DNA from: a virus
Reading direction: 5' to 3' (one strand)
IMG/VR virus record: IMGVR_UViG_3300045988_161200
Length of the DNA stretch: 64,000 nt
The notes below the pieces were generated by a model. The model ran no database searches. It saw nothing but the letters and a program-made list of their open reading frames with translations, and had not been told where the DNA came from. Below are positions 22,500 through 58,047 of this stretch, piece by piece. The translations under genes and the position numbers were made by a program. Within the stretch, counting starts at the first letter, position 1; the number at the start of each line of letters is the position of its first letter.

Positions 22500-24254
22500 T
22501 CATATGCCCGTTTGAACAGTAAAGGTTATTTTGCGACAATGCCCTATATGTCTCATATCAGGATGGATAAAGCTCCATTGTTGTTTGGTAGTCATCTTCT
22601 TAGTGATGTTACCCGAACAACAATGATGTTTGTCTCGAATACAAGTATAGTTATTACTCTCACCGGTTTTTAATTTTATCTCGATTTTCATACATTCTTC
22701 GTTTCGAGGAATTATTGTTATCCTATCTACTACTGTTGTAACTATTTCGTCCACCTCTTCTTTTGTCATAATTCTGTCTGGATGATACATTTCCTTAAAA
22801 TACTTCTCAATTTTTTCAAGCTCTTTGGCATAGGCTTCTGAAGAACAATTTCTTTTTTCAATAGCAGAGACTTCTTCTTCTAATTCGTTAATGAGAATGT
22901 TGGAAGCATCATTTCTTTCCTTAAATTCTTTTTTGGTAATGATATCTTCAGTATACGCATCAAGAAGTTTTTCTCTCTTTGCTTTTTCCTTTTCTATCTT
23001 TGCTTTAAGAGCATTGAGTTCACGTTGATTTTCGGACGATGTATCTGTTTCACGATAAATTTTCAAAAAGGTTGCAACATAGTCGTCAATGTTTTCAGCG
23101 ATGTTTTTAAAATGTTCTGATAGCATTTGATATATGTCCGATTCGAGAATTGCAAATGAAGCGCAAGCTCCCGCTCCAAAACGACGTTTTTCACTGCATA
23201 TCCATTGATATATAGGTGTTCCCTTTGAAACACTATTAGAGTAGCTTGTGCGCCAATATGCCTTGTCGTCTGCACCGCACCAGATTTTTCCAGATAAGGC
23301 GCTTCTATCTTTGAATGATCTTGAATGACTCTTTACTACTGCGCTTCTTTCACGAAAAATTTTATTGCACTTATCCCACAGTTCTTCACTGACTATAGCT
23401 GGAACTATTTCTCCAGTTTCGTCTTTGTATACAATCCATTCGTTTTCAGGCAAGAAGCGTTGTTCTTTAGTGCGATAGTCAATAATCTTTACTTTGTTAC
23501 CGCAATAATAACCTTTGTATTTGGGATTTTGTATAATTCCCGAAATAGTGTTATGGTGTAACCGGGTACCATTTCTACTACGATACCCTTTATTATACAG
23601 AATATCTTCTAACTTTCTTACGCTATAAGCTCCAGTAGCATATCTATCAAAGATTAATCGAATCATTTCAGCTTCTTTTTCATTGATAACAAGCTTACAA
23701 TTATCTTTATCGTACCCATAGATACGATTATTACCCATAACAGTTCCATTTTCAATAGAACGCTTATGCCCCCAACGAACACGCTCAGAAAGTTTACGAA
23801 CCTCATCAGCTGCAATACTTGACATTATAGTCAAACGTAGTTCACTGTCTGTATCAATGGTGCAGATATTATCATTCTGAAAGAAAACTCCAACACCAGC
23901 ACGAAGAAGTTCACGAGTGTAAACCAAACTATCAACTGTATTACGGGCAAAACGACTGACCTCTTTGGTGAGAACGAGGTCGAATCTTCCAGCTTTCCCA
24001 TCTTCTATCATTTGTATAAAGTTTGTACGATTGATTGCATTTTCTCCTCTAATACGATCAATATATCCCTCGACATATGTCCAGTTTTTATTAGATTTAA
24101 TAAAGTCGGTAAAATATGTTATCTGGTTCTCAATAGAGTTTTCTTGTTCTTCTCTGGTCGTTGAAACACGAGCATAAAAGGTCACTCTGAGTTTTAAATC
24201 AAAGATTGTTTTTTGCTCATATTTCATTCGATTGGCGGTTTCGTATATATCCAT
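22500..24254 (-). CDS. Large serine recombinase (integrase)
   Basis: Resolvase catalytic domain FYARVSTTREEQENSIENQ...LVLTKEVSRFARNT, recombinase domain, then a Cys-rich zinc/coiled-coil region. GGAGGG RBS. Confidence 0.9.
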   Translation of the reverse strand: MDIYETANRMKYEQKTIFDLKLRVTFYARVSTTREEQENSIENQITYFTDFIKSNKNWTYVEGYIDRIRGENAINRTNFIQMIEDGKAGRFDLVLTKEVSRFARNTVDSLVYTRELLRAGVGVFFQNDNICTIDTDSELRLTIMSSIAADEVRKLSERVRWGHKRSIENGTVMGNNRIYGYDKDNCKLVINEKEAEMIRLIFDRYATGAYSVRKLEDILYNKGYRSRNGTRLHHNTISGIIQNPKYKGYYCGNKVKIIDYRTKEQRFLPENEWIVYKDETGEIVPAIVSEELWDKCNKIFRERSAVVKSHSRSFKDRSALSGKIWCGADDKAYWRTSYSNSVSKGTPIYQWICSEKRRFGAGACASFAILESDIYQMLSEHFKNIAENIDDYVATFLKIYRETDTSSENQRELNALKAKIEKEKAKREKLLDAYTEDIITKKEFKERNDASNILINELEEEVSAIEKRNCSSEAYAKELEKIEKYFKEMYHPDRIMTKEEVDEIVTTVVDRITIIPRNEECMKIEIKLKTGESNNYTCIRDKHHCCSGNITKKMTTKQQWSFIHPDMRHIGHCRKITFTVQTGI

Positions 24255-32493: not shown

Positions 32494-33273
32494 TTATCTA
32501 TCCATATTTTTAATTCTATACTTAGCTACATCAGCCCAAAACCAATTTTCAAATTCTCCCTTACGGTCACAAATACCATTGTCTATACCTATGTAATTCC
32601 TATTTTCAAGTTGAGCAGCTTTCAAAATAGAACCTGAACCACAACAAAAATCAACTACCAAATCACCCTCGTTTGTATATGTACGAATTGCATACCTGCA
32701 AAGTTCAATAGTTTTCTGTGTAGGATGTAGAGAACATTTTTGTTTGTCGGTGGCAAATTTCCAAATGCTTGTTGGATAACGCTCTGTACTATCATAAGTA
32801 GTTAAGCCAAAGTCTCCATAGTTAGAAGTTTGAATACAATTTATTTTACTTTCAGCTTTACTCACTTTACGTTTATGCCCTGTTGTTTTCTGCGGATTAT
32901 AAGTAGGTAGCTTATTGTAGAAAACCATTATATCTTCATGTGTTCTCAAAGGTATTTTCTTTGCATTGAGATGACCCGTAGGTGTAGTTTTCTCCCAAAT
33001 GATATTATATTTGTGCATTTTCTCATTAGACAACATCATCTTAGCTGTAAATTTGTCTTGTCCGAAGAATAGGACTATACCGTTGTCTTTTAGTGTTCTT
33101 TCTATCTGCCTCCACATTGGTTCAGGTGGAATAATATTATCCCACTTGTTTTTTGCAGTCACTCCGTATGGTAAGTCAACAAAGTACATATTAACAGATT
33201 CATCAGGGATCTGTTTAAGTCCCTCGATACAGTCCATATTATAGACATTATTTATCTCAAGCGTTTTTATCAA
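32494..33273 (-). CDS. DNA methyltransferase (N4/N6 type, motif IV before motif I)
   Basis: Motif IV FVDLPYG near the N-terminus. AdoMet motif VVDFCCGSGS near the C-terminus. Confidence 0.85.
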   Translation of the reverse strand: MIKTLEINNVYNMDCIEGLKQIPDESVNMYFVDLPYGVTAKNKWDNIIPPEPMWRQIERTLKDNGIVLFFGQDKFTAKMMLSNEKMHKYNIIWEKTTPTGHLNAKKIPLRTHEDIMVFYNKLPTYNPQKTTGHKRKVSKAESKINCIQTSNYGDFGLTTYDSTERYPTSIWKFATDKQKCSLHPTQKTIELCRYAIRTYTNEGDLVVDFCCGSGSILKAAQLENRNYIGIDNGICDRKGEFENWFWADVAKYRIKNMDR

Positions 33274-33316
33274 CTCCTTTTATACAATAAAAGTGGATTT
33301 TTATTGCACAATTTCA

Positions 33317-33742
33317 TTAAAACATTTCACCTTTATAATTAAATATTGGCATAGTAATAAAATCGTAAGTTTTCAATTCATCTAATTCATTAAGGTTTGT
33401 CCAACATCCCTCATGAATCATCAAATTAGAATTATTGCCGAGATGAACAACTACGCAGGGAATGCCTTTTGCATAAGCATACCCACATTCCCACGCTGTT
33501 CCAGAGTCGGAATAACCACCGTGATAAAGCATTACCATTACATCAGATTTATCAATCTCGATACTGTCCATTTCAAATATTGATTTTGACCATTCTTTTG
33601 TACCTACTTCAAAGGTTCGATTTTCATGTTCTCTGGGTGAAAATACATCAAAACCTCTTTCTCTTAAAATTTGTTCTGCTGTAGTGACAGCGTTAATTTC
33701 ATTCTTGTTGAAAAATGGAGAAGCTAAATAAATTTTCATCAT
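33317..33742 (-). CDS. Nucleoside 2-deoxyribosyltransferase family protein
   Basis: KIYLASPFFN ... DSGTAWECGYAYAKGIP ... NLMI, the family pattern including the catalytic Glu context. Confidence 0.8.
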   Translation of the reverse strand: MMKIYLASPFFNKNEINAVTTAEQILRERGFDVFSPREHENRTFEVGTKEWSKSIFEMDSIEIDKSDVMVMLYHGGYSDSGTAWECGYAYAKGIPCVVVHLGNNSNLMIHEGCWTNLNELDELKTYDFITMPIFNYKGEMF

Positions 33743-33753
33743 TAATCATCCTT

Positions 33754-34116
33754 TCAGTTATCGCCTGTTATAGCAATTACTTTCTTCCAATAAGGTTTAT
33801 ACTTACTTAACTCCTTGGTTACCAAAGCATTAAATTCTTCGTCAGATAGATTGTCGTATTCTTCACAGTCTGCTAAGTAATCTGATAGAGCATTTTCAAA
33901 ATCATCTCTATCGTTATATAAATAGTCATCGCCAAACGGTAATGCACAATCAAGAATTTCATCAATACAGAAATGAATATCTGAGCAGTATGTATATCCA
34001 TAATCGTCTGAAACTGCATCATGTCCTACAAGAACCACAATGGGCAGGTCTGGATTTTCTGCGATAAGTTGTTTTAATTCGTCTGAACTTTTTGATAAAT
34101 TTAAGGGGTGTATCAT
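33754..34116 (-). CDS. Highly acidic hypothetical protein
   Basis: 120 aa with 27 D/E against 8 K/R by my count. No recognisable motif. Confidence 0.55.
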   Translation of the reverse strand: MIHPLNLSKSSDELKQLIAENPDLPIVVLVGHDAVSDDYGYTYCSDIHFCIDEILDCALPFGDDYLYNDRDDFENALSDYLADCEEYDNLSDEEFNALVTKELSKYKPYWKKVIAITGDN

Positions 34117-34128
34117 TTTATATTCTCC

Positions 34129-35205
34129 TTATACATTTTTTGTCCTCCATATATCACTTATCTCCTGATTATACTCAAAATCACTATTTACTGAATACCC
34201 TGTCAACCATTTTATAAGCCTATAATCAGATATTCTTAAGGATACATCTGTTTCTATTACAATACCCTCTATTCGCTTACAATTCTCACTCGGATAATTA
34301 CATTTTCCTGTCTTATACAACATACATTCATACTGCGCTTCATACTTCATTCTATACTCAAAAGGTAACTCTACCTCTCTATACATATGCTTCGCTTTAC
34401 GGCATTTCTCATTCATAAGGCATTTATTGCACTCTACCTCGTCTGGTCTGTAATAATGACAGTTATAATCCCTATCCTTATTATGTACATAAGATAGCAT
34501 ACATGATGTTTTATGAAATAATATTACAGAATTTTTATTCGCTTCTTCTCTTATTATCCTTTCTACTTCCTCTGATATAGGCTTCTTATGCCCAAATTCA
34601 TACCCCTCATATGGCTTTAAGTCTATATTATTTTCTTTCCAATACTCTACTACCTCTGGCTTACCCTGTAATCCACTATAACTTACACACATATTATACT
34701 TCTTTGCTATCTCCATTACCTTTGCTATTGTTTCTCTGTCATCATTTATTCCACAGCATATAGGTCTGAACTCAATAGAATATTTATAATTATACTTTCG
34801 ATTCTTGGTTTGTTCCAAATTACTTATAAATCTTTCCCAACTACCACCATCATATTTGTAATTCTTACCAAACGTTGAAAATGCTATATGCAAATCTAAA
34901 TTAAATGGTATATCAGGAAATTTTGAAAAATCACCTTTTGTTATTATTACTACTATACCCTTATGTCCTGCTTCTTCTAATCTATGTAAATATTCTACTG
35001 TCTTATCTACCTGTAATAAAGGGTCGCCATATGTGAGATTTATTGCTACTGGTATATTCTTAAATATAGGATTTATGTCGGTTGGTAATATGTCATACTC
35101 TACCTGCTTACAACCACCCTCTATTGCTCTACAATAACTACAATTAAAACAAGTCTTTAATGTTCTACCTAATGTATAAAATGATTTCTCAATATTTGTA
35201 CACAT
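34129..35205 (-). CDS. Fe-S enzyme, radical-SAM-like with a non-canonical cysteine motif
   Basis: N-terminal CFNCSYCRAIEGGC (CX2CX2CX6C) instead of CX3CX2C. INLTYGDPLL is typical of radical-SAM barrels. Further Cys clusters near the C-terminus (CNKCLMNEKC, CMLYKTGKCNYPSENC). Confidence 0.5.
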   Translation of the reverse strand: MCTNIEKSFYTLGRTLKTCFNCSYCRAIEGGCKQVEYDILPTDINPIFKNIPVAINLTYGDPLLQVDKTVEYLHRLEEAGHKGIVVIITKGDFSKFPDIPFNLDLHIAFSTFGKNYKYDGGSWERFISNLEQTKNRKYNYKYSIEFRPICCGINDDRETIAKVMEIAKKYNMCVSYSGLQGKPEVVEYWKENNIDLKPYEGYEFGHKKPISEEVERIIREEANKNSVILFHKTSCMLSYVHNKDRDYNCHYYRPDEVECNKCLMNEKCRKAKHMYREVELPFEYRMKYEAQYECMLYKTGKCNYPSENCKRIEGIVIETDVSLRISDYRLIKWLTGYSVNSDFEYNQEISDIWRTKNV

Positions 35206-35206
35206 T

Positions 35207-35803
35207 TTACTTCCTTCCCAATTTGTCCTGTGCTTCTTCTATTCTTTCTTTAGCTATCTCAAAATAATTTTCATCAAGTTCAATACCAATAAATTTACGA
35301 TTAAGTTGTTTGGCTGCAACTCCACAAGCGCCAACACCCATAAATGGGTCAATAACGGTATCGTTCTCATTTGATGAATTTTCAATCAAAATTTTGCACA
35401 AATCAACAGGCTTTTCGGTATCGTGAATATTTTTACCATTTTCGTCTTTAGTCTTTTTATTTGCAACAGATAATATATCTGATGTGCCACAATTATTTAT
35501 TTTTACTCCTGCGCCTTTGCGAAGAAACAATATGTATTCAAACTGGTTCATATAAAATTGACCCATTATTTTATTTCCCTTATCCCATATCAAGGACTTA
35601 ATGAAATGGAAACCACCACCTGTTTCTTCATCACTCCATTCATCAATGACTTTAAGAAAATGTGTAAGATTCTTATGATTGGTCATTATGTAGCAATGTC
35701 CTGTTTCTTTAAGTATCTTATAAAATTTTGGTAGATAATCCTCTATCTCGATATTATTATGTTCAAAGACTTGTCCTTTTCGATTTATCTTTTTCTGCAA
35801 CAT
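35207..35803 (-). CDS. DNA methyltransferase (N4/N6 type), C-terminal part lacking motif IV
   Basis: Contains TEKPVDL and AdoMet motif VIDPFMGVGACG. The reading frame upstream of the listed ATG reads PPPYKVTARGNAGNSGG. Confidence 0.8.
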   Translation of the reverse strand: MLQKKINRKGQVFEHNNIEIEDYLPKFYKILKETGHCYIMTNHKNLTHFLKVIDEWSDEETGGGFHFIKSLIWDKGNKIMGQFYMNQFEYILFLRKGAGVKINNCGTSDILSVANKKTKDENGKNIHDTEKPVDLCKILIENSSNENDTVIDPFMGVGACGVAAKQLNRKFIGIELDENYFEIAKERIEEAQDKLGRK

Positions 35804-35835
35804 ACCACCTGAATTACCAGCGTTTCCTCTTGCAG

Positions 35836-35961
35836 TTACCTTGTAAGGGGGGGGTCAGTAAATATCATATCTACCATTTTGTTTTTGCCTATCATACAAT
35901 CTAAAACATCTAATGCGTTTTCATTAAATATGATGCTATTATCGAATTTGTTATAATTCAA
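35836..35961 (-). CDS. N-terminal fragment of the same methyltransferase, in another frame
   Basis: AGGAAG RBS plus TTG 35961. NYNKFDNSIIFNENALDVLDCMIGKNKMVDMIFTDPP, then out of frame. Together with 35207..35803 it would make a complete DPPY enzyme. Confidence 0.6.
   Translation of the reverse strand: MNYNKFDNSIIFNENALDVLDCMIGKNKMVDMIFTDPPLTR
35847..35854. repeat. G8/C8 homopolymer tract inside the DPPY codons
   Basis: Plus strand reads TAAGGGGGGGGTCAG. Six residues would give GAC CCC CCT TAC (DPPY). Nine would give DPPPY in frame. Eight is out of frame. Confidence 0.9.
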
Positions 35962-36009
35962 ATTTTAACACTTCCTTTCAATTTACAATAAAACGAGTCA
36001 TTTATATTA

Positions 36010-36624
36010 TTACTTTATTACATCTCTTATATCTTGACCATCAATTTCATTACCGATGCTATCCCATCCTTTACAAGTAGTTCTTGCAAATAATTCTACC
36101 CTCGGAACATCACCGCAAAGCTCAACTATTTTGTCTCGAATATGTTCAGGCTTTTTGCTATGAGACATTACCCTGTCTTCTACTAACTGTGTCATAAATA
36201 TATTCCATTCATCATCTGTCATTTCTTCACGGACGATCTGATGAACACTCCTTGATAATCTATGAGGTTTACCCTTTGTGCCAAGTAAACATATTTCAGA
36301 ATTAGCTCTCGTCCAATAACCACATCCCCAAAAATCAGTATCAGATTTTTTGTTTTTCTTTACCCAATTAAAAGCACAAGTTTTATATGTAAAGCCCCAA
36401 CGTTCTATTGTTTCTATACCTTCTTTAAGAAGCGGAAATGTGACCCAAAGGAACAAAATGCAATCATCTGCTGTAATATTTTGTACAGGTAAGTTGTAAA
36501 TATCATTTATCTTCATTGTAGGATAATGATTTTCAGCCGATTTCTTTTCTTTACCCTTTTCAGAGTAAGTTTTAAAAAGCCACGGAGGGTCGGCATAAAC
36601 TATATTATATTTTCTTGTTATCAT
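36010..36624 (-). CDS. MT-A70 family N6-adenine DNA methyltransferase
   Basis: IVYADPPWLFKTY (DPPW motif), with length and layout typical of phage MT-A70 enzymes. Confidence 0.85.
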   Translation of the reverse strand: MITRKYNIVYADPPWLFKTYSEKGKEKKSAENHYPTMKINDIYNLPVQNITADDCILFLWVTFPLLKEGIETIERWGFTYKTCAFNWVKKNKKSDTDFWGCGYWTRANSEICLLGTKGKPHRLSRSVHQIVREEMTDDEWNIFMTQLVEDRVMSHSKKPEHIRDKIVELCGDVPRVELFARTTCKGWDSIGNEIDGQDIRDVIK

Positions 36625-36714
36625 TTTTACTTCCTTTCATCAAATACTGTTTTCATTGTATAATTTTGACTACATATAGTAATATTTTGAGTATAAAGTA
36701 CCATATATAGTATC

Positions 36715-36891
36715 TTAAATTTCGTTAACCACTTCAAATTGAACTGAGCCATCAACATAATCATCTGCTTCAAGAACAATATCACTATCGTAATACTTAT
36801 CCTTTACCTTTTGAATTGCCTCCTCTGAAGTTTCAGCTTCAATTTCAAGTCTACTTGTAAGTAACTCTGATACCTGTATTATATATTTCAT
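36715..36891 (-). CDS. Small DpnD/PcfM-like protein (not in the ORF track)
   Basis: 58 aa with an AAGGA RBS. MKYIIQVSELLTSRLEIEAETSEEAIQKVKDKYYDSDIVLEADDYVDGSVQFEVVNEI matches the DpnD/PcfM-like pattern as I recall it. Confidence 0.5.
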   Translation of the reverse strand: MKYIIQVSELLTSRLEIEAETSEEAIQKVKDKYYDSDIVLEADDYVDGSVQFEVVNEI

Positions 36892-36906
36892 TTTTATCCT
36901 TTTATA

Positions 36907-37560
36907 TTATGTATTTATCCACCCGATAACAGGTGCGTTATTATAATTGCCTACTTCCCAGACAAACCAAGCGTAGCACTTTGCAGATGACATTCTTTTT
37001 TCTGTTCCATCTTTATTGTAAAGAGTATTACCGTCTTTATCTTTTGCACTGAAATCACCGTTCATTCCACAAAGTAGTCTGTTAGCAGCTACCCACACTC
37101 TTACAGGTGGTCTTGTCTTAAAAAGTCTTATTCTTTTATCACTTTCAAGGAATTGTATCGGAAGAAATAGTGCAAGTTTCTTACCGCTTTCAAGCAAGTC
37201 AAGCGAATGTTCCGTCCACTCTAATGCTGTTGAATAGGGTGGATTAGTAACTATATTGTCAGCAAGAGATTTATTGCATTTGAAGAAATCAACATCACCT
37301 TCTCCATAACCTCTATCAACTAAGTCCGTGCTTACAACATCATAGCCAGCTTTAATCATAGACTCTGACAAATGACCCTCACCACAACAATTTTCCCAGA
37401 TAGAGCCATTAAATTTTTCTACTTTCATCAGTTCTTCAATGGCTTTAGGCTCAGTAGCATAATAATCGTGTTCAGCTCTATCGTGGTTGGTGTGATTACT
37501 TGCACCGAGCGTAACGAATGTTGTTTTCTTATTGCCTGTCCAATCTTTATTATCACTCAA
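36907..37560 (-). CDS. N6-adenine DNA methyltransferase (NPPY type)
   Basis: AdoMet motif WENCCGEGHL and catalytic IVTNPPYS. Confidence 0.8.
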   Translation of the reverse strand: MSDNKDWTGNKKTTFVTLGASNHTNHDRAEHDYYATEPKAIEELMKVEKFNGSIWENCCGEGHLSESMIKAGYDVVSTDLVDRGYGEGDVDFFKCNKSLADNIVTNPPYSTALEWTEHSLDLLESGKKLALFLPIQFLESDKRIRLFKTRPPVRVWVAANRLLCGMNGDFSAKDKDGNTLYNKDGTEKRMSSAKCYAWFVWEVGNYNNAPVIGWINT

Positions 37561-37579
37561 ATTTTAACATCTCCTTACT

Positions 37580-38443
37580 TTAATAGTTTGTTATCAGCAC
37601 TTCTATATCTTTGGTTTCTCGGTCTTTCTTGTGATAATTACAATTTAGATAGTCTCCAGATAAATAGTGAATATTATATTTATCTTTCCAAGCATCTAAA
37701 AATTCATTATTATATTTTAAGTTATTTGATAAAGCCCACCTTGCTCCCTGTTCGTCCAATCTATCCAGTAATTCGTAAAGTTTCTTTTCGTGTTCAGCAG
37801 TCCAACCCTCGAAGCCACGTTTCCCATCATTGTAATTACCAACAGAATTAAAATAAGGTGGGTCAAAATATATCAGATCGTTCTCGTTAAAGTCTGAAAA
37901 ATCAAAATTGAAAGCGTTTTTAGACGATACTATTATAGGGTCTTTATTCTCAAATCTCTGTTTTAAAGCAAGTAAGTCCTGTCTTTGCCTGTCAGAAAAA
38001 TAACTGCGATTTTTACCGAAACTACTATTATATTCGTGCTTGTTATTAAAACGGAACTGATGATTAAATGAATGGCACATCAAAGTATATAGTGTAATCC
38101 AATCTTTTCTGCCATTATTATAACTATCATGAAGTCTTTCAAAGCCTTCCTTATTTATCATACTCAAATCGTATTCTGAAATAATGTTTTCAATCTGCTT
38201 GATTATTTCATTATAAGACGTTGAGAACAATCCCGACACAATACTTGAAACATAAGGATTTATGTCGTTATATATGTAATAGTCTGCTTCTGTATTCATT
38301 AAAACCGTTCCTGAACCGCCGAAAGCATCTACAAACATTGAAATCTTTTTAGGAAACAAAGGTATAAGCTGCTTGATTAGACGATATTTATTACCTACAT
38401 AATTTATAGGTGATTTTATGTATTCCTGATTTATTTTTAACAT
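37580..38443 (-). CDS. dam: Dam-family (D12 class) DNA adenine methyltransferase
   Basis: PINYVGNKYRLIKQL, FVDAFGGSGTV, LIYFDPPYFNS. Confidence 0.9.
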   Translation of the reverse strand: MLKINQEYIKSPINYVGNKYRLIKQLIPLFPKKISMFVDAFGGSGTVLMNTEADYYIYNDINPYVSSIVSGLFSTSYNEIIKQIENIISEYDLSMINKEGFERLHDSYNNGRKDWITLYTLMCHSFNHQFRFNNKHEYNSSFGKNRSYFSDRQRQDLLALKQRFENKDPIIVSSKNAFNFDFSDFNENDLIYFDPPYFNSVGNYNDGKRGFEGWTAEHEKKLYELLDRLDEQGARWALSNNLKYNNEFLDAWKDKYNIHYLSGDYLNCNYHKKDRETKDIEVLITNY

Positions 38444-52595: not shown

Positions 52596-54868
52596 TCTCC
52601 TTCAATTAATAAATTATATAACCAAGTTTGACGTGTAAAATTTTCTTTTTTCTTAATTGCTCTACCGAATGTGTTTAAATCACTAAGCAAATAACATCTT
52701 TCTTTTGCTCTTGTAATTGCTACATATAGTAAATTTGAATTAAGCATAAATGTATGTGAATTTGGTGCAAAAACAATAACAATTCTTGCTTGACCACCTT
52801 GACTCTTATGAATCGAAATTGCATAAGCCAATTTAATGTTAGAAAACTTATCTTTTGGAATATAAATTTTATAATCATCAAAATCAACTATAATACCATT
52901 ATAAGTAATGTCTGAAATAATTCCTATATCTCCATTTGGAATAAGTGTTGTTATATCTTCTTCAGTATTATAATAGTCAGCGTGATTTTCTTGATATATA
53001 AATGACTGATAATCATTTTTACATTGAATAATAGGATCACCTACTCTATATTCAACATCTCCAAAAGAAGTTTTCTTTGTAACGTTAGTATTTATCACTG
53101 ATTGGATTTGATTGTTTATTTTTTCTGTACCATAATCACCTTTGTTTTGAGCTACTACAATTAGAATATCCTTTAAGGGAATATTGTTATCTAAGAGTTT
53201 TTTATACATTTTTATAATGTAATCGACTGCTCGTTCAGGTGCAATAGGAATATAAGTACAACCTTTATCTTCTCCAACCGTCTGAGTACCTGTTACATTC
53301 TGAAAAGTTAATTTACTTTCTCTTATATCCGTGGCTACTGTACTCAAACCACCCTTTCCATAACGAAATACTTTTGAAAGCCATACCGTTGGGACAATAT
53401 TACTATTTAAAATATCGTGTAATACATTTCCACAAGATACTGATGGTATTTGAGCATTATCTCCTATGATTAAAAGCTTTGTCCTGTTGAAATCAATAGA
53501 TTCAAGTAAATGCTTAAATAAAAACACATCTACCATAGAAGTTTCATCAAGAATAACAATATCTTGAGGCAACTTATTCTTTTCATTATAACACCATTCA
53601 TTAGGTGGCATAAATCCTAATCCTCTATGAATAGTGCTTGCCATATGATTGGTATATTTCTGCAATACCTTTGCAGCTCTACCAGTTGGAGCAAGCAAAA
53701 TTGCAGTCAAATTATTATCATAAAGCATATTCATCAATGCTAATACTGAAAAACTTTTACCACTGCCTGCAAATCCTTGTAAGACAGTTATAGTATTTTC
53801 ACATACAAATTTCATAGTTTGCATTTGTTCGTTTGTGAGTGACGAATTGTTTATAACACGATATTTCTCTATATCTACATTCCACTTGTGATTAACCATT
53901 AAAGCATTTTTAAGTGTATCAGCAATATATTTTTCTGTTTCAAATGTATTTGTTTTAGAGATTCTACCCTGTTTCTTATCAAATATTATAGTATCAGATG
54001 AATTGATTGCATCTGCAAGTTTATCCTTTGCTTCAAGGGCATAAGTCAAACATTCTTTTTGAAACTGTTTGATACTCATATAAGTATTTCCGTTATTTTC
54101 ATTTTCATCAAGAACATAAGAGCAACAAGCTTTCATTCTTTCGGCAGATGTTAGAAGATCAAATTTAAAATCTATAATTGGCTTCTCTCCATTTTTTACA
54201 CGTTCTTTAGACAATTCATCTATTCGGAGCAAGAGTGTATCTGCTGTTTTAAACCCTATACCTCCTAATTTACATAAACACTCGTAAGGTTTAGTATAAA
54301 GATTTTCTTTGATTTTTTCAATAGATGGATAGGTGTCATATAATTTTTTTATGATAGAAAAACTAAATACTCCTGAAAATTCATCTACTAATTCTGCAAG
54401 TTTAAAATTTTCAATTACCTTTTTCTTTATCTTGGCAAAGGTAACTTCTTTTATGCCTTTAGTTTTATTCAAATCAATATCATTAAGACGATTATTCATT
54501 ATTCTGTCTATAATATCGGGATATACAGCAAGCAGTGTGCTTGCTTGCTGATAAGTTAATATCTCCTGCAAAAAAGCCCTGCTGTTTTCAAGAGTTACTG
54601 GCTTTTCGCTTCTGATATTTATAACTTTATATCCTATACCATATTTATCTTTTTCTTCATCTGCTTTTATGATATATTCACAGTCAAGATTAAGTTCTTG
54701 TATATCTCCTTTTATTGTAACTGTTCCATATTTAGAGACTGCAATATTAGGGTATTTAAAACTGTCTATAGTACAACCATAGATTTTAAAATTTTCAGAA
54801 TTATAAAGACATCTTATTGGGATTGCTTTAAATTCTTTTATTTTAGTTAATTTTTCAGGACTTCCCAA
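52592..54868 (-). CDS. RecD-like SF1 DNA helicase
   Basis: Walker A GFAGSGKS, Walker B VILDETSMVD, C-terminal AISIHKSQGGQ and LYVAITRAKE. TTG start after GGTGA. Confidence 0.8.
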   Translation of the reverse strand: MGSPEKLTKIKEFKAIPIRCLYNSENFKIYGCTIDSFKYPNIAVSKYGTVTIKGDIQELNLDCEYIIKADEEKDKYGIGYKVINIRSEKPVTLENSRAFLQEILTYQQASTLLAVYPDIIDRIMNNRLNDIDLNKTKGIKEVTFAKIKKKVIENFKLAELVDEFSGVFSFSIIKKLYDTYPSIEKIKENLYTKPYECLCKLGGIGFKTADTLLLRIDELSKERVKNGEKPIIDFKFDLLTSAERMKACCSYVLDENENNGNTYMSIKQFQKECLTYALEAKDKLADAINSSDTIIFDKKQGRISKTNTFETEKYIADTLKNALMVNHKWNVDIEKYRVINNSSLTNEQMQTMKFVCENTITVLQGFAGSGKSFSVLALMNMLYDNNLTAILLAPTGRAAKVLQKYTNHMASTIHRGLGFMPPNEWCYNEKNKLPQDIVILDETSMVDVFLFKHLLESIDFNRTKLLIIGDNAQIPSVSCGNVLHDILNSNIVPTVWLSKVFRYGKGGLSTVATDIRESKLTFQNVTGTQTVGEDKGCTYIPIAPERAVDYIIKMYKKLLDNNIPLKDILIVVAQNKGDYGTEKINNQIQSVINTNVTKKTSFGDVEYRVGDPIIQCKNDYQSFIYQENHADYYNTEEDITTLIPNGDIGIISDITYNGIIVDFDDYKIYIPKDKFSNIKLAYAISIHKSQGGQARIVIVFAPNSHTFMLNSNLLYVAITRAKERCYLLSDLNTFGRAIKKKENFTRQTWLYNLLIEGE

Positions 54869-57800
54869 TGTATCATCACCTTTTCTTTTTCATTTGTTTT
54901 TACCCATTTGCCATCAATTAATTTGCTTTTATATTTATTATCAAACCAAATATTAAGAATGCTGTTTTCTCTAAATGGTATTGAAGCATATTCATTTGCA
55001 GATATTACCTTTGATTTCATAGTTATGCCTGTTTTTAGATGATAAAGCATAACATAAGGCTTGCATTTGTCCTTATAGACTTTCATTTCAAGAACATAAT
55101 ACAAACTCTCTGGAGCTTTGGGATTGGCATAATCTATGTATCCAAGTATTTCCTTTTGATATTGAATAGTTTTTATGAGAGAATTTTTTATGTTAGACAA
55201 AGAATCCCAATACTCATATAATGCTGTATCATAATCAAATTCTCTATATTGCTTTTCAGTTTCCTTAGAATGATTTTTTATTATTTCAGCTATTTCAAAA
55301 GAGACAGAATTTTTACTAAACTGCGTTCTTTCATATAAACTGTCAGTCATTTCAATAAACCTGAGTATTCTTTCATTGTTGCCAAAATCAGAGAAATAAT
55401 TGATTTTTGCCAAGATTTCAATATGACCTTTATTTATAACAGATGATTTTTTTAATGCTTTCCATATATCATAGAAATTATCAAATTTCATCTGACCTAT
55501 TGTATATAGTTCATCTGCTACCTTTTGGCTCAATCCTTTAATTGATAACAATGAGGGATAGATACAATGATTGTTCTGATCTGCTTTAAATCGTCTATTA
55601 TCCTCTCCAAACTTATATTTCCCCTCTTCAATCTTAAAGCCTTCACGCATTTCTTGTTTCAGCAACATTACTTTATCTTTGTTTCCTTTATCAGAATAAT
55701 GCTGCAAAAGAACTTCGTAAAACTCATAGGGATAATGAGCTTTAAGATAAGCACAGTAAAGAGAATCCAATGCCATACAATAAGCATGAGCTGAATTAAA
55801 TCCATATCCACAAGAATCTGAAATGATTTGCCATACTTTATTGCTCATCTCTATAGCAGTGTTTTCATCAACCTTATCATCTGCAATAATTCTTGCCTTA
55901 AATCCATCTATAAACCTGCTTTTTAAAGGTTTAACCTTTTCAGGATGCTTTTTTGCGATAGCTTTGATAATTCCATAACATTCATCAAGAGGAAATCCTG
56001 CATAGTTTAATGTATTCATTGTCTGTTCCTGATAAAGAATAAACGATTGTGGAAATTCAGGTGTCTGCAAAATATTATCAAATGCCTTAATCCCATATTC
56101 AAAATGCTCTCTTGTTTCAAATTTTGAATACATTGATTTAAAAGCTGGACGTATCGCTGCAATAAAAGCTGCTAACTCAGATATATTCTGAGGCTTGAAT
56201 TTCATTGCTTTTTTAGTAGTAGATTGTTTTTCACACTGATTTATTCCAATCGTCAAGCCCGATGAATAAATATTCCATACCTTTTCATCATTTTTTACAA
56301 GCTCGGTAAGTTCATTTACAGTATGATGTTTAATGCCTATTCTTTTGTAAAGATTATTTATTAACAAAACCACATCTACTTTAAGCAGGTCATTTTTGAG
56401 AAATTTATATTTTTCAGCTATTGCACCATCAATTACAGTAGTTATGTATTCTTTCTTTGTAGTATCACTTTTACACTTTATAAGTCCTACTTCAGAACGA
56501 ATATCTCCTTGATATAATAAATATGCGCAAGGTGCTTTCTTTTTATCTGAAATAATTCCCCAATATTTTTTGCTTTGGTCAAGATAATTATGATAATTTT
56601 TATCTACATAATCATAAATATCAATCATATCCTTATCTTCATCGTCAGCATTTTTGTATGCTTCCTCATAATCTCCAATTTGCTTGGAAATGTTATTTGC
56701 TAATTCAGCTTCCATATTCATTGCTCTTGAATACATCTTAAAAGCAGCTTTCTTTTTCAAAGTTCCAAAAGCAATCATAGGGTATGCGTGACCTTTACCG
56801 AGAATTTCTTCTTGCGCTTCCGCAAATATTTCAGGATTGCCACAGTTCAGATCAAGATCGGGAAGTGATCTCGTTTCAAGAATACGGCTTTCAGAAATAA
56901 ATCTTTCAGGATAAAGTTTTATAGGAGACATAAATCTATCTACTTTACTGAATCCACAAAGAGTATTTGTAAAATAGCCAACTCCAGAACCTCTTCCTGT
57001 ATCTGTAATAAGTCCACCCTTTTCAATAGCTCTTTTTACTATCTGATAATCTATCAAAGGATAGTCCACCATTTTTGTTTTTTTATAAACATCAACTTCT
57101 TGCTGAACGCTTGTGATATACTTTTTCTTTTCTTCAACCGAAAAATCTTTTATATATTCTTTAAGTTTTGAAGCAATAAGTTTTGTATAAAGTTTGTTGC
57201 GTTCTTCTTGTGTTTTATCTGGATATATTGTAGGTAGCTTTATATCATCAGTTAAAATTATATCATCAAAAGTTAGACAAATATCAGTATTATCCATAGC
57301 AGTTTGAATTTCTTCTTTGGTAAAAACACCTTGTTCAAGAAATCTCTGCATTATTGTATTGTCATCAGGATAATCCATATACCAGCCTTCTTCATCTTCA
57401 TAAAAGACTTTATTGGCTTCAAGTAGATTTTGTCTATCTTCTGATTGTTCAGGATAAATATAATGGCTATCAAGTCCCACAATTATTTGAATATCATTAT
57501 CATAAGCAATTTTCTTTATCTTTTTATTTAAGGCAATTTGTTGTGGTGTATTATGATACTGAATTTCAAGCATTAAATTACTCTGAAAGTGTTCTTTTAA
57601 TTGTAATACAATTTCTTCAATGTCATCATACTTCCAAAAGGCTATACAAGCTGTTGTAACAAATACATCATTAGATGGTAAAGACAAGAGCAAGTCTAAA
57701 TCAAGGCGAGGTCTAAAATAATATCCTGTTTCATTGGCTTCAGATAGGATTTCGTTAATTGCTCTTCTACCGTTTTCGTTTTTGGCAAGAATAATTATAT

Positions 57801-58047
57801 GACAATTTGTCTTATCTTTTTCAGTCCGATCTTTTACCCAATACGCTTCTGCACCAAATATAAACTTTAAATTGTATTTTTTTGCGAGTTCAAATGTCTG
57901 ATAATAATATCCCTGCCAACCGTGTTCAACACTTGATATTATTTTATGACCTACTTCTACTGCTCTTTTTGCATAATCTTCATTCATTACTGCACTATCT
58001 GCAATATAGATATTACTGTAAGAAGAATGTCTATGATAGTTTTGCAT
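54847..58047 (-). CDS. dnaE: DNA polymerase III alpha subunit (DnaE-like, N-terminal PHP domain)
   Basis: PHP motif HRHSSYSN...SSVEHGW. Fingers motif GYGFNSAHAYCMALDSLYCAYLKAHYP. Confidence 0.85.
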   Translation of the reverse strand: MQNYHRHSSYSNIYIADSAVMNEDYAKRAVEVGHKIISSVEHGWQGYYYQTFELAKKYNLKFIFGAEAYWVKDRTEKDKTNCHIIILAKNENGRRAINEILSEANETGYYFRPRLDLDLLLSLPSNDVFVTTACIAFWKYDDIEEIVLQLKEHFQSNLMLEIQYHNTPQQIALNKKIKKIAYDNDIQIIVGLDSHYIYPEQSEDRQNLLEANKVFYEDEEGWYMDYPDDNTIMQRFLEQGVFTKEEIQTAMDNTDICLTFDDIILTDDIKLPTIYPDKTQEERNKLYTKLIASKLKEYIKDFSVEEKKKYITSVQQEVDVYKKTKMVDYPLIDYQIVKRAIEKGGLITDTGRGSGVGYFTNTLCGFSKVDRFMSPIKLYPERFISESRILETRSLPDLDLNCGNPEIFAEAQEEILGKGHAYPMIAFGTLKKKAAFKMYSRAMNMEAELANNISKQIGDYEEAYKNADDEDKDMIDIYDYVDKNYHNYLDQSKKYWGIISDKKKAPCAYLLYQGDIRSEVGLIKCKSDTTKKEYITTVIDGAIAEKYKFLKNDLLKVDVVLLINNLYKRIGIKHHTVNELTELVKNDEKVWNIYSSGLTIGINQCEKQSTTKKAMKFKPQNISELAAFIAAIRPAFKSMYSKFETREHFEYGIKAFDNILQTPEFPQSFILYQEQTMNTLNYAGFPLDECYGIIKAIAKKHPEKVKPLKSRFIDGFKARIIADDKVDENTAIEMSNKVWQIISDSCGYGFNSAHAYCMALDSLYCAYLKAHYPYEFYEVLLQHYSDKGNKDKVMLLKQEMREGFKIEEGKYKFGEDNRRFKADQNNHCIYPSLLSIKGLSQKVADELYTIGQMKFDNFYDIWKALKKSSVINKGHIEILAKINYFSDFGNNERILRFIEMTDSLYERTQFSKNSVSFEIAEIIKNHSKETEKQYREFDYDTALYEYWDSLSNIKNSLIKTIQYQKEILGYIDYANPKAPESLYYVLEMKVYKDKCKPYVMLYHLKTGITMKSKVISANEYASIPFRENSILNIWFDNKYKSKLIDGKWVKTNEKEKVMIHWEVLKN

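Follow-up and report, generated by a model that had tools for sequence, protein, structure and literature searches.

A length-polymorphic C-run in the catalytic-motif codons of a gut-phage DNA methyltransferase gene as a candidate ON/OFF switch

When the DNA methyltransferase gene of a phage is broken by a single run of eight identical nucleotides, is the break a sequencing error, a site of recoding, the mark of a dispensable gene, or one state of a hypermutable switch? Many gut phages encode methyltransferases, and these enzymes help to determine the hosts that a phage can infect; homopolymer-driven ON/OFF switching of methyltransferases (mod genes, phasevarions) is textbook knowledge in bacteria. 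The question was addressed for one such gene in a window of 64,000 nucleotides (the whole stretch of DNA that was analysed) and for its relatives in a census of public metagenomes comprising ~70 contigs.

The run is G8 on the plus strand of the window and C8 on the minus strand, which is the coding strand (Table 1), and it occupies codons about 35-37 of the methyltransferase, exactly in the DPPY codons where the sequence-only reading had placed it. Across the tract the minus strand reads ...ATG ATA TTT ACT GAC CCC CCC CTT ACA AGG TAA, and past the tract the -1 frame reads ..PPPYKVTARGNAGNSGGMLQKK... (PPPYKVTARG...) on into the 198-aa ORF that was called mechanically. When the frames were recomputed for each tract length, C6 gave DPPY and a single 250-aa ORF, C9 gave DPPPY in frame, and C8 was out of frame with a 41-aa stub whose stop follows DPPLTR, all three as had been proposed; C7 was likewise out of frame, with a 48-aa stub. 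The length of the repeat sets whether a full-length or a shortened product is encoded. The proposal that the 41 codons and the 198-aa ORF are one methyltransferase with the tract as its sole break also held, the repaired protein matching the family PF01555 over its full length. The start MNYNKFDN is common to the intact homologues and the window gene, and intact C6 alleles of 243 aa were found among the relatives.

Table 1. Coordinates of the tract, the methyltransferase gene and the surrounding features in the window.
Feature	Position	Strand	Remarks
Large serine recombinase (integrase)	22500-24254	-	
Methyltransferase island	32494-38443	-	five genes: two PF01555, MT-A70, NPPY protein, Dam/D12
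Second PF01555 N6_N4 methyltransferase of the island	32494..33273	-	
358-aa Cys-rich gene 3' of the methyltransferase	34129..35205	-	ATG 1 nt past the methyltransferase stop (TAAAATG)
Predicted beta-class N6-adenine DNA methyltransferase gene, whole, frameshifted	35207..35961	-	250 aa if the tract were C6
Methyltransferase 3' part, -1 frame	35207..35846	-	..YKVTARGNAGNSGGMLQKK.. to stop; TEKPVDL and motif I DPFMGVGACG
Mechanically called 198-aa ORF	35207-35803	-	part of the methyltransferase 3' portion
Predicted hairpin in minus-strand RNA	35760-35835	-	made by the codons for TARG...GGMLQ
Methyltransferase 5' fragment	35836..35961	-	TTG start 35959-35961, 41 codons to ...MIFTDPPLTR, stop TAA 35836-35838
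C8 homopolymer (G8 on the plus strand)	35847..35854	-	third base of the Asp codon and both Pro codons of motif IV (DPPY); gene out of frame
Putative Shine-Dalgarno sequence AGGAAG	35971..35976	-	9 nt 5' of the TTG start; assigned from sequence
MT-A70 family methyltransferase	36010..36624	-	DPPW = GAC CCT CCG TGG, no tract
217-aa NPPY protein	36907..37560	-	AAT CCA CCC TAT; probable methyltransferase, no Pfam match
D12-class (Dam-like) adenine methyltransferase	37580..38443	-	DPPY = GAC CCA CCT TAT
DnaE-type Pol III alpha replicase	54847-58047	-	

The repaired protein aligned with the complete Pfam profile PF01555 (N6_N4_Mtase; positions 1-221/221, E 1e-34). After repair, DPPY occupies residues 36-39 and DPFMGVGACG lies close to the C-terminus, so that motif IV is N-terminal to motif I, the order of the beta class. 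The nearest solved structures were 5hek, 'adenine specific DNA methyltransferase (DpnA)' (E 6.5e-20), and CcrM (6pbd, E 2.7e-19), which share with the window enzyme the order of motif IV (DPPY) and then motif I (FxGxG) and the full PF01555 match; this likeness is at the family level only and does not allow the target sequence of the methyltransferase to be inferred. NCBIfam scores of the repaired protein were far under the equivalog cut-offs. The DPPY motif and the nearest structures favour m6A over m4C specificity, and the protein is predicted to be an orphan, Type II-like enzyme of the beta class. The protein search returned more than 7000 homologues, and all 129 that were fetched with the motif carried DPPY (DPPPY in 0/129). 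Several close protein matches are C-terminal fragments that begin at the internal Met of the 198-aa ORF of the window.

The window belongs to a large tailed phage, encoding a tail fibre, a DnaB-like helicase, the DnaE-type Pol III alpha replicase, a ligase, NrdD, ThyX and the large serine recombinase; the claim that the gene is phage-borne is thereby borne out, with tail fibre, replication genes and integrase all within the window. Contigs with the window haplotype measure 134-142 kb, and the phage is an uncultured human-gut phage of ~134 kb. The nearest cultured relatives of its polymerase are in Geobacillus and Bacillus siphophages (37-39% amino-acid identity), which points to a Bacillota host as likely. 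The repaired protein was also searched against GTDB genomes, where only relatives of at most 70% identity were found, in Clostridia, Christensenellaceae and other MAGs, a result that gives no host. Megablast of the 4-kb region against cultured and GenBank phages returned only a 245-bp, 76% match to a Fusobacterium phage methyltransferase, which shows that this collection does not contain the phage. Lysogeny is possible, judging from the serine integrase. Some contigs with the sister allele are 246-330 kb long and could be integrated prophages or misassemblies.

The methyltransferase lies in an island of five such genes (Table 1), the gene content of which is mosaic among near-identical phages (window compared with L001, L002, L004 and L131); relatives carry, in exchange, a Mom-like gene (PF25680), a LemA gene, extra Dam or N6_N4 genes, or a DpnD-PcfM gene. 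The island looks like a fast-evolving anti-restriction cassette. Neither the Pfam scans of the neighbours nor the gene tables of the relatives showed any res or hsd domains; what lies next to the gene is further solitary methyltransferases and small unknown genes. Since its ATG lies directly behind the methyltransferase stop, the Cys-rich 358-aa gene may be translationally coupled to the frameshifted gene. This ORF had no Pfam match and resembled glycyl-radical activating enzymes only weakly (E 1e-4); L001-L004 lack it at this position and have a 120-aa gene immediately next to the methyltransferase instead. Its insertion coincides with a differing methyltransferase C-terminus (..EEAQDKLGRK) in the window allele.

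For the analysis of length polymorphism the tract was read from the DNA of 29 close contigs, all of them from human-gut metagenomes and assembled by ENA submitters or by Logan. Lineage A (98-100% identity, ..C(n) T TAC..) is in frame at C6 and contained five C6 alleles (intact), 13 C7 alleles and four C8 alleles in addition to the window. Lineage B (~88% identity, GAC CCC CCC TAT) is in frame at C7 and contained three intact C7 alleles and three broken C6 alleles. Sequences identical over the 757-bp gene with the tract masked were grouped into haplotypes, each of which contained two tract lengths: the C8 of the window and six C7 copies in H1, two C6 and one C7 in H2, and five C7 and three C8 in H3. 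Compared with the independent 134-kb contig L133, the window showed 0 mismatches over 11,950 bp, the sole difference being C8 in the window against C7, and all other homopolymers of at least 5 nt were identical (73/73); the comparison with the 142-kb scaffold L131 over 20.5 kb gave 3 mismatches and the tract. Ordered parsimony on the lineage-A tree (22 sequences) required 8-9 single-base length steps, with a conservative lower bound of ~6, and the alignment of this lineage has 49 variable sites in 765 columns, from which the tract is estimated to be about two orders of magnitude more changeable than the average site. It is by far the most variable site locally. Phage genomes recovered from different individuals can match otherwise and still differ in tract length, the gene being intact in some populations and broken in others. 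What the sequence-only reading had named as speaking against a switch (relatives lacking any repeat with a tract fixed at eight, or a single in-frame length) is not what was found, lineage A carrying C6, C7 and C8 and lineage B carrying C7 and C6.

According to the gene calls, intact forms were present on ~29 contigs and split forms on ~44, counts in which some samples probably appear twice, via both ENA and Logan. In lineage A, OFF alleles outnumber ON alleles by ~2:1. The exact 198-aa product of the window haplotype was present on 14-15 public contigs, all of them OFF, and its ON form (the 250-aa protein) was absent among 15 billion public proteins. The DPPPY (C9) versions of three haplotypes were absent from the same 15 billion proteins; C9 as the natural ON state, considered as a candidate, is unsupported by these searches and by the homologues with the motif. 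A gapped DNA pattern scan of JGI metagenomes gave 28 matches, of which 27 were due to chance and one was real (L033, C7), and the match found by the same type of scan in IMG/VR was due to chance.

Homopolymers are error-prone on certain sequencing platforms, and the C8 of the window is one base off the C7 of its six haplotype-mates. A miscall of a tract that is in truth in frame had been regarded as an equally simple explanation, and on the present data it is extremely improbable. Restoring the frame takes a two-base error (C6) or the never-observed C9, and the 73 other homopolymers within 12 kb are in full agreement. C7 and C8 were found in more than 15 independent assemblies produced by various assemblers, many of them from Illumina data, and C7 is broken as well. 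The Logan contig L132 (run ERR636397) matches the window at 100% over 15,981 bp, C8 included, and this run was obtained on an Illumina HiSeq 2000 (PMC5725903). The exact length of 8 rather than 7 in the window genome comes from one sample; the gene would be broken even if the true length were that of its six haplotype-mates, since C7 is also out of frame. At the level of the assembled sequences, a one-off error is excluded as the explanation of the frameshift. It is also conceivable that the full-length enzyme is made from C7 and C8 templates by programmed ribosomal frameshifting or transcriptional slippage, which would leave the gene functionally ON; C_CCC_CCC is formally slippery, CCC-C is a +1-prone context for tRNA-Pro, and a hairpin begins 11 nt 3' of the tract (dG -17.8 kcal/mol, z -2.4, a fold matched by 3/200 shuffles). 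We consider such recoding, including the -1 ribosomal slippage suggested by the sequence-only reading, highly unlikely. C7 would need a +1 and C8 a -1 shift and both occur within one haplotype, the C6 alleles are in frame and have no need of recoding, and the -1 product DPPPY is the form that none of the homologues with the motif carries. Programmed sites have a fixed length, whereas the run varies from 6 to 8 in near-identical genomes and most relatives lack any run. Both stems of the lineage A hairpin are disrupted in lineage B, which also has the tract; the hairpin is not conserved there and is thus probably incidental.

Whether the run is more than a chance outcome of codon choice was assessed from the composition of the window (34% GC). 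The tract is the only G or C run of at least 6 in the 64 kb, compared with first-order Markov expectations of 2.7 runs of at least 6 and 0.09 of at least 8, and G/C homopolymers thus appear to be avoided in this genome. In the window there are twelve G/C runs of exactly 5, none of 6-7 and one of 8, and A/T runs of 6-8 are frequent (32 A, 72 T). In 30 long ORFs, CCC makes up 10% of the Pro codons and GAC 25% of the Asp codons, CCC-CCY was used in 0/8 other Pro-Pro pairs, and the probability of GAC-CCC-CCY calculated from codon usage is ~0.015 per lineage. The three other (D/N)PP(Y/W) methyltransferases of the window use interrupted codons (Table 1), as do the lineages P0002 and P0004 (GAC CCA CCG/CCT TAT) and ~40 wider relatives with 56-82% identity, which encode DPP as GAY CCA/CCT CCW. 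The uninterrupted C-run is retained in both lineages A and B. A neighbour-joining tree, which is not robust, placed the tract-less P0004 between lineages A and B, so that the C-run would have been either gained twice or kept twice.

The sequences of lineages A and B differ at 144 of ~700 nucleotides (dN 0.083, dS saturated, dN/dS ~0.02), and this strong purifying selection indicates long-standing function of the enzyme. The OFF copies are otherwise intact, which is weak evidence on its own since they are very young. In one close haplotype, P0132/P0127 (contigs of 22.8 kb and 638 bp), the broken 5' end is accompanied by another frameshift towards the 3' end (...ENSTNQQMRMKPLLTHL); this is real decay, and it is the only such sign among the OFF alleles seen. 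A tract-less sister lineage (L005, L006 and L007; GAC CCA CCG TAT) is frameshifted in an A-rich run (CAAAAGAAAAATC), around L005:3025-3045. This frameshift occurred in three samples of one project (SRR13517648, SRR13517649, SRR13517654), the relative L130 being intact, and it is a second, independent way in which the same gene has been switched off.

Length changes occurred in both directions, as contraction in lineage B (C7 to C6) as well as expansion. Most of them can be read as one-way expansion from C6 to C7 to C8, that is, as loss of function, and the signal for reversion from OFF to ON amounts to a parsimony preference of one step (8 steps with C7 at the root, 9 with C6). The lengths C6-C8 are at the short end of the tracts that phase-vary at high rates in bacteria. 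In the Swedish-traveller cohort (PRJEB7369), two adjacent runs yielded the same haplotype with C8 (L132; Logan, ERR636397) and C7 (L039; ENA assembly, ERR636398), and the 35 students of this cohort were sampled both before they travelled and afterwards (PMC5725903). If the two runs were the pair of one person, the dominant tract length would have changed in-host within weeks; near-identical phage genomes also occur in unrelated samples, and sequence identity alone is therefore no proof of the pairing.

We consider it probable that replication slippage in the hypermutable homopolymer switches an orphan anti-restriction methyltransferase between ON and OFF, the copy in the window being OFF. Three of the marks by which a contingency locus is recognised were found here: the repeat lies inside an ORF, its length sets the frame, and the length is polymorphic in otherwise identical genomes. 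Slipped-strand mispairing during replication of the phage DNA would add or remove single C residues. In lineage A the full enzyme would be made from C6, and C7 and C8 would yield the 48-aa and 41-aa stubs that stop soon past DPP, so that phage populations would contain methylating (ON) genomes alongside non-methylating (OFF) ones. In the ON state the phage DNA would be shielded from host restriction enzymes that are blocked by the methylation mark; in the OFF state the phage would escape restriction that depends on methylation (Type IV-like), or would be spared the cost of the enzyme. In that case the tract would be a contingency locus with the logic of bet-hedging, by analogy with the A9 repeat of T2 agt, for which this logic was demonstrated by experiment.

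The same alleles could instead have accumulated at a non-adaptive hotspot, in which a dispensable gene, one of five in the island, happens to contain a C6/C7 run and the OFF forms are young neutral pseudogenes with no selected switching. The excess of OFF copies in lineage A, the four other methyltransferases close by, the second frameshift in P0132/P0127 and the tract-less sister lineage broken in its A-run in three samples would all fit such a hotspot. So would the frequency of poly-C over DPPY in phage methyltransferases at large: in-frame C7 over xTDPPY was found in at least 120 IMG/VR contigs, and a C-run over DPPY can thus arise without selection for switching. The window haplotype was found OFF only, and of the switchable phage-borne methyltransferase proposed earlier it is the phage origin and the length polymorphism in identical backgrounds that stand, not an observed ON state of this haplotype. 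We nevertheless regard the hotspot as rather unlikely. Against it stand the strong purifying selection on the protein across A and B with saturated dS, and the uninterrupted run kept by both lineages where one synonymous change would stabilise it and CCC is rare, in a genome in which G/C runs are otherwise avoided (1 against 2.7 expected). The otherwise intact OFF copies, the presence of ON and OFF forms side by side in identical haplotypes, and contraction in addition to expansion also argue against it. A C-run over DPPY is itself not exotic; what is distinctive at the window tract is the high fraction of OFF alleles and the low-GC setting.

Comparison with known systems helps to place the proposed switch. 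In the phase-variable methyltransferases of bacteria that depend on simple sequence repeats (mod of Haemophilus and Neisseria; poly-G/C of Helicobacter pylori and Campylobacter jejuni), as in the window, a homopolymer inside the ORF sets the frame and tract length differs in otherwise identical genomes. Those genes are chromosomal, whereas the window gene is phage-borne, and their tracts are located towards the 5' end or within a region of repeats, whereas that of the window is short (6-8) and sits in the catalytic DPPY codons. The bacterial phasevarion mod genes are of Type III or Type I, the window enzyme being instead an orphan with no res/hsd partner nearby; the gene is thus distinct from the Type III/I mod genes with res/hsd that constitute phasevarions.

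The comparison is closest with agt of phage T2, which was described as a contingency locus in a preprint by Gomez, Barrick & Waters (2025; PMC12633550). There, +/-1 frameshifts in an A9 homopolymer switch DNA modification off and back on, the threat of TgvAB is traded against McrA/BC, and reversion is ~1000-fold over that of a point mutant; hypermutable tracts are documented in T2/T4 (PMC12633550). Both cases have a homopolymer in a DNA-modification gene of a phage and share the proposed mechanism and logic, but agt encodes a glucosyltransferase and has A9, whereas the gene in the window, from an uncultured gut phage, encodes a methyltransferase and has C6-8. Reversion was measured for agt, whereas the window tract is known from population polymorphism alone and its opposing pressures are hypothetical. 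The polyG tracts of Fletchervirus, a Campylobacter phage (Sorensen et al. 2021, Cell Rep, as cited in PMC12633550 and PMC12823448) are, in the account of the citing papers, likewise hypermutable G/C homopolymers in phage coding sequences with ON/OFF subpopulations; by that account they are G7-11 tracts in receptor-binding protein genes and alter host range, whereas the target in the window is a DNA methyltransferase. A phage-borne methylase gene with a G/C homopolymer is also present in Bordetella phage BPP-1 (Liu et al. 2004 J Bacteriol), where the polyG tract was, according to the citing paper (PMC12633550) through which it is compared here, noted and not studied further. The frameshift in PMC3091744 is the E/E' tail-gene site of P2 and has no bearing on a phage methylase. 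Literature searches returned no account of the gut-phage case and no population census of a phage methyltransferase tract. For the window locus the polymorphism is well supported and its biology is unproven.

A wider reading, which we hold to be possible and put forward tentatively, is that selection maintains the C-run as a device for evolvability. In this widespread human-gut phage it would hedge between hosts whose restriction enzymes the mark blocks and hosts that have methylation-dependent nucleases; the dominant state could flip within a person over weeks, and the DPPY codons would be a recurrent switch point, given the three unrelated IMG/VR phage methyltransferases that are broken alike. 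If true, contingency loci in phage DNA modification would have support from natural populations, beyond that from the laboratory T-even phages, and the census offers a ready natural test case for the recent proposal of such loci. If a homopolymer toggles the methyltransferase, host range and restriction escape would become population-level and rapidly reversible traits, with relevance for virome dynamics and phage therapy. Annotation is affected too, since genes of this kind end up listed as pseudogenes or as a pair of small ORFs.

Alleles outside the window lineages suggest that frameshifts may arise readily at the DPPY codons of phage methyltransferases in general. Clearly broken C8 versions are few: three unrelated IMG/VR methyltransferases have DPPY codons broken by C8 (L135:4755-4770, L142:3507-3522 and L152:1124-1139), and C7 restores them to 465, 428 and 233 aa, respectively, with motif I. 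Two of these enzymes have ParB-like N-terminal domains, and the 233-aa enzyme is encoded on a contig with 29% GC.
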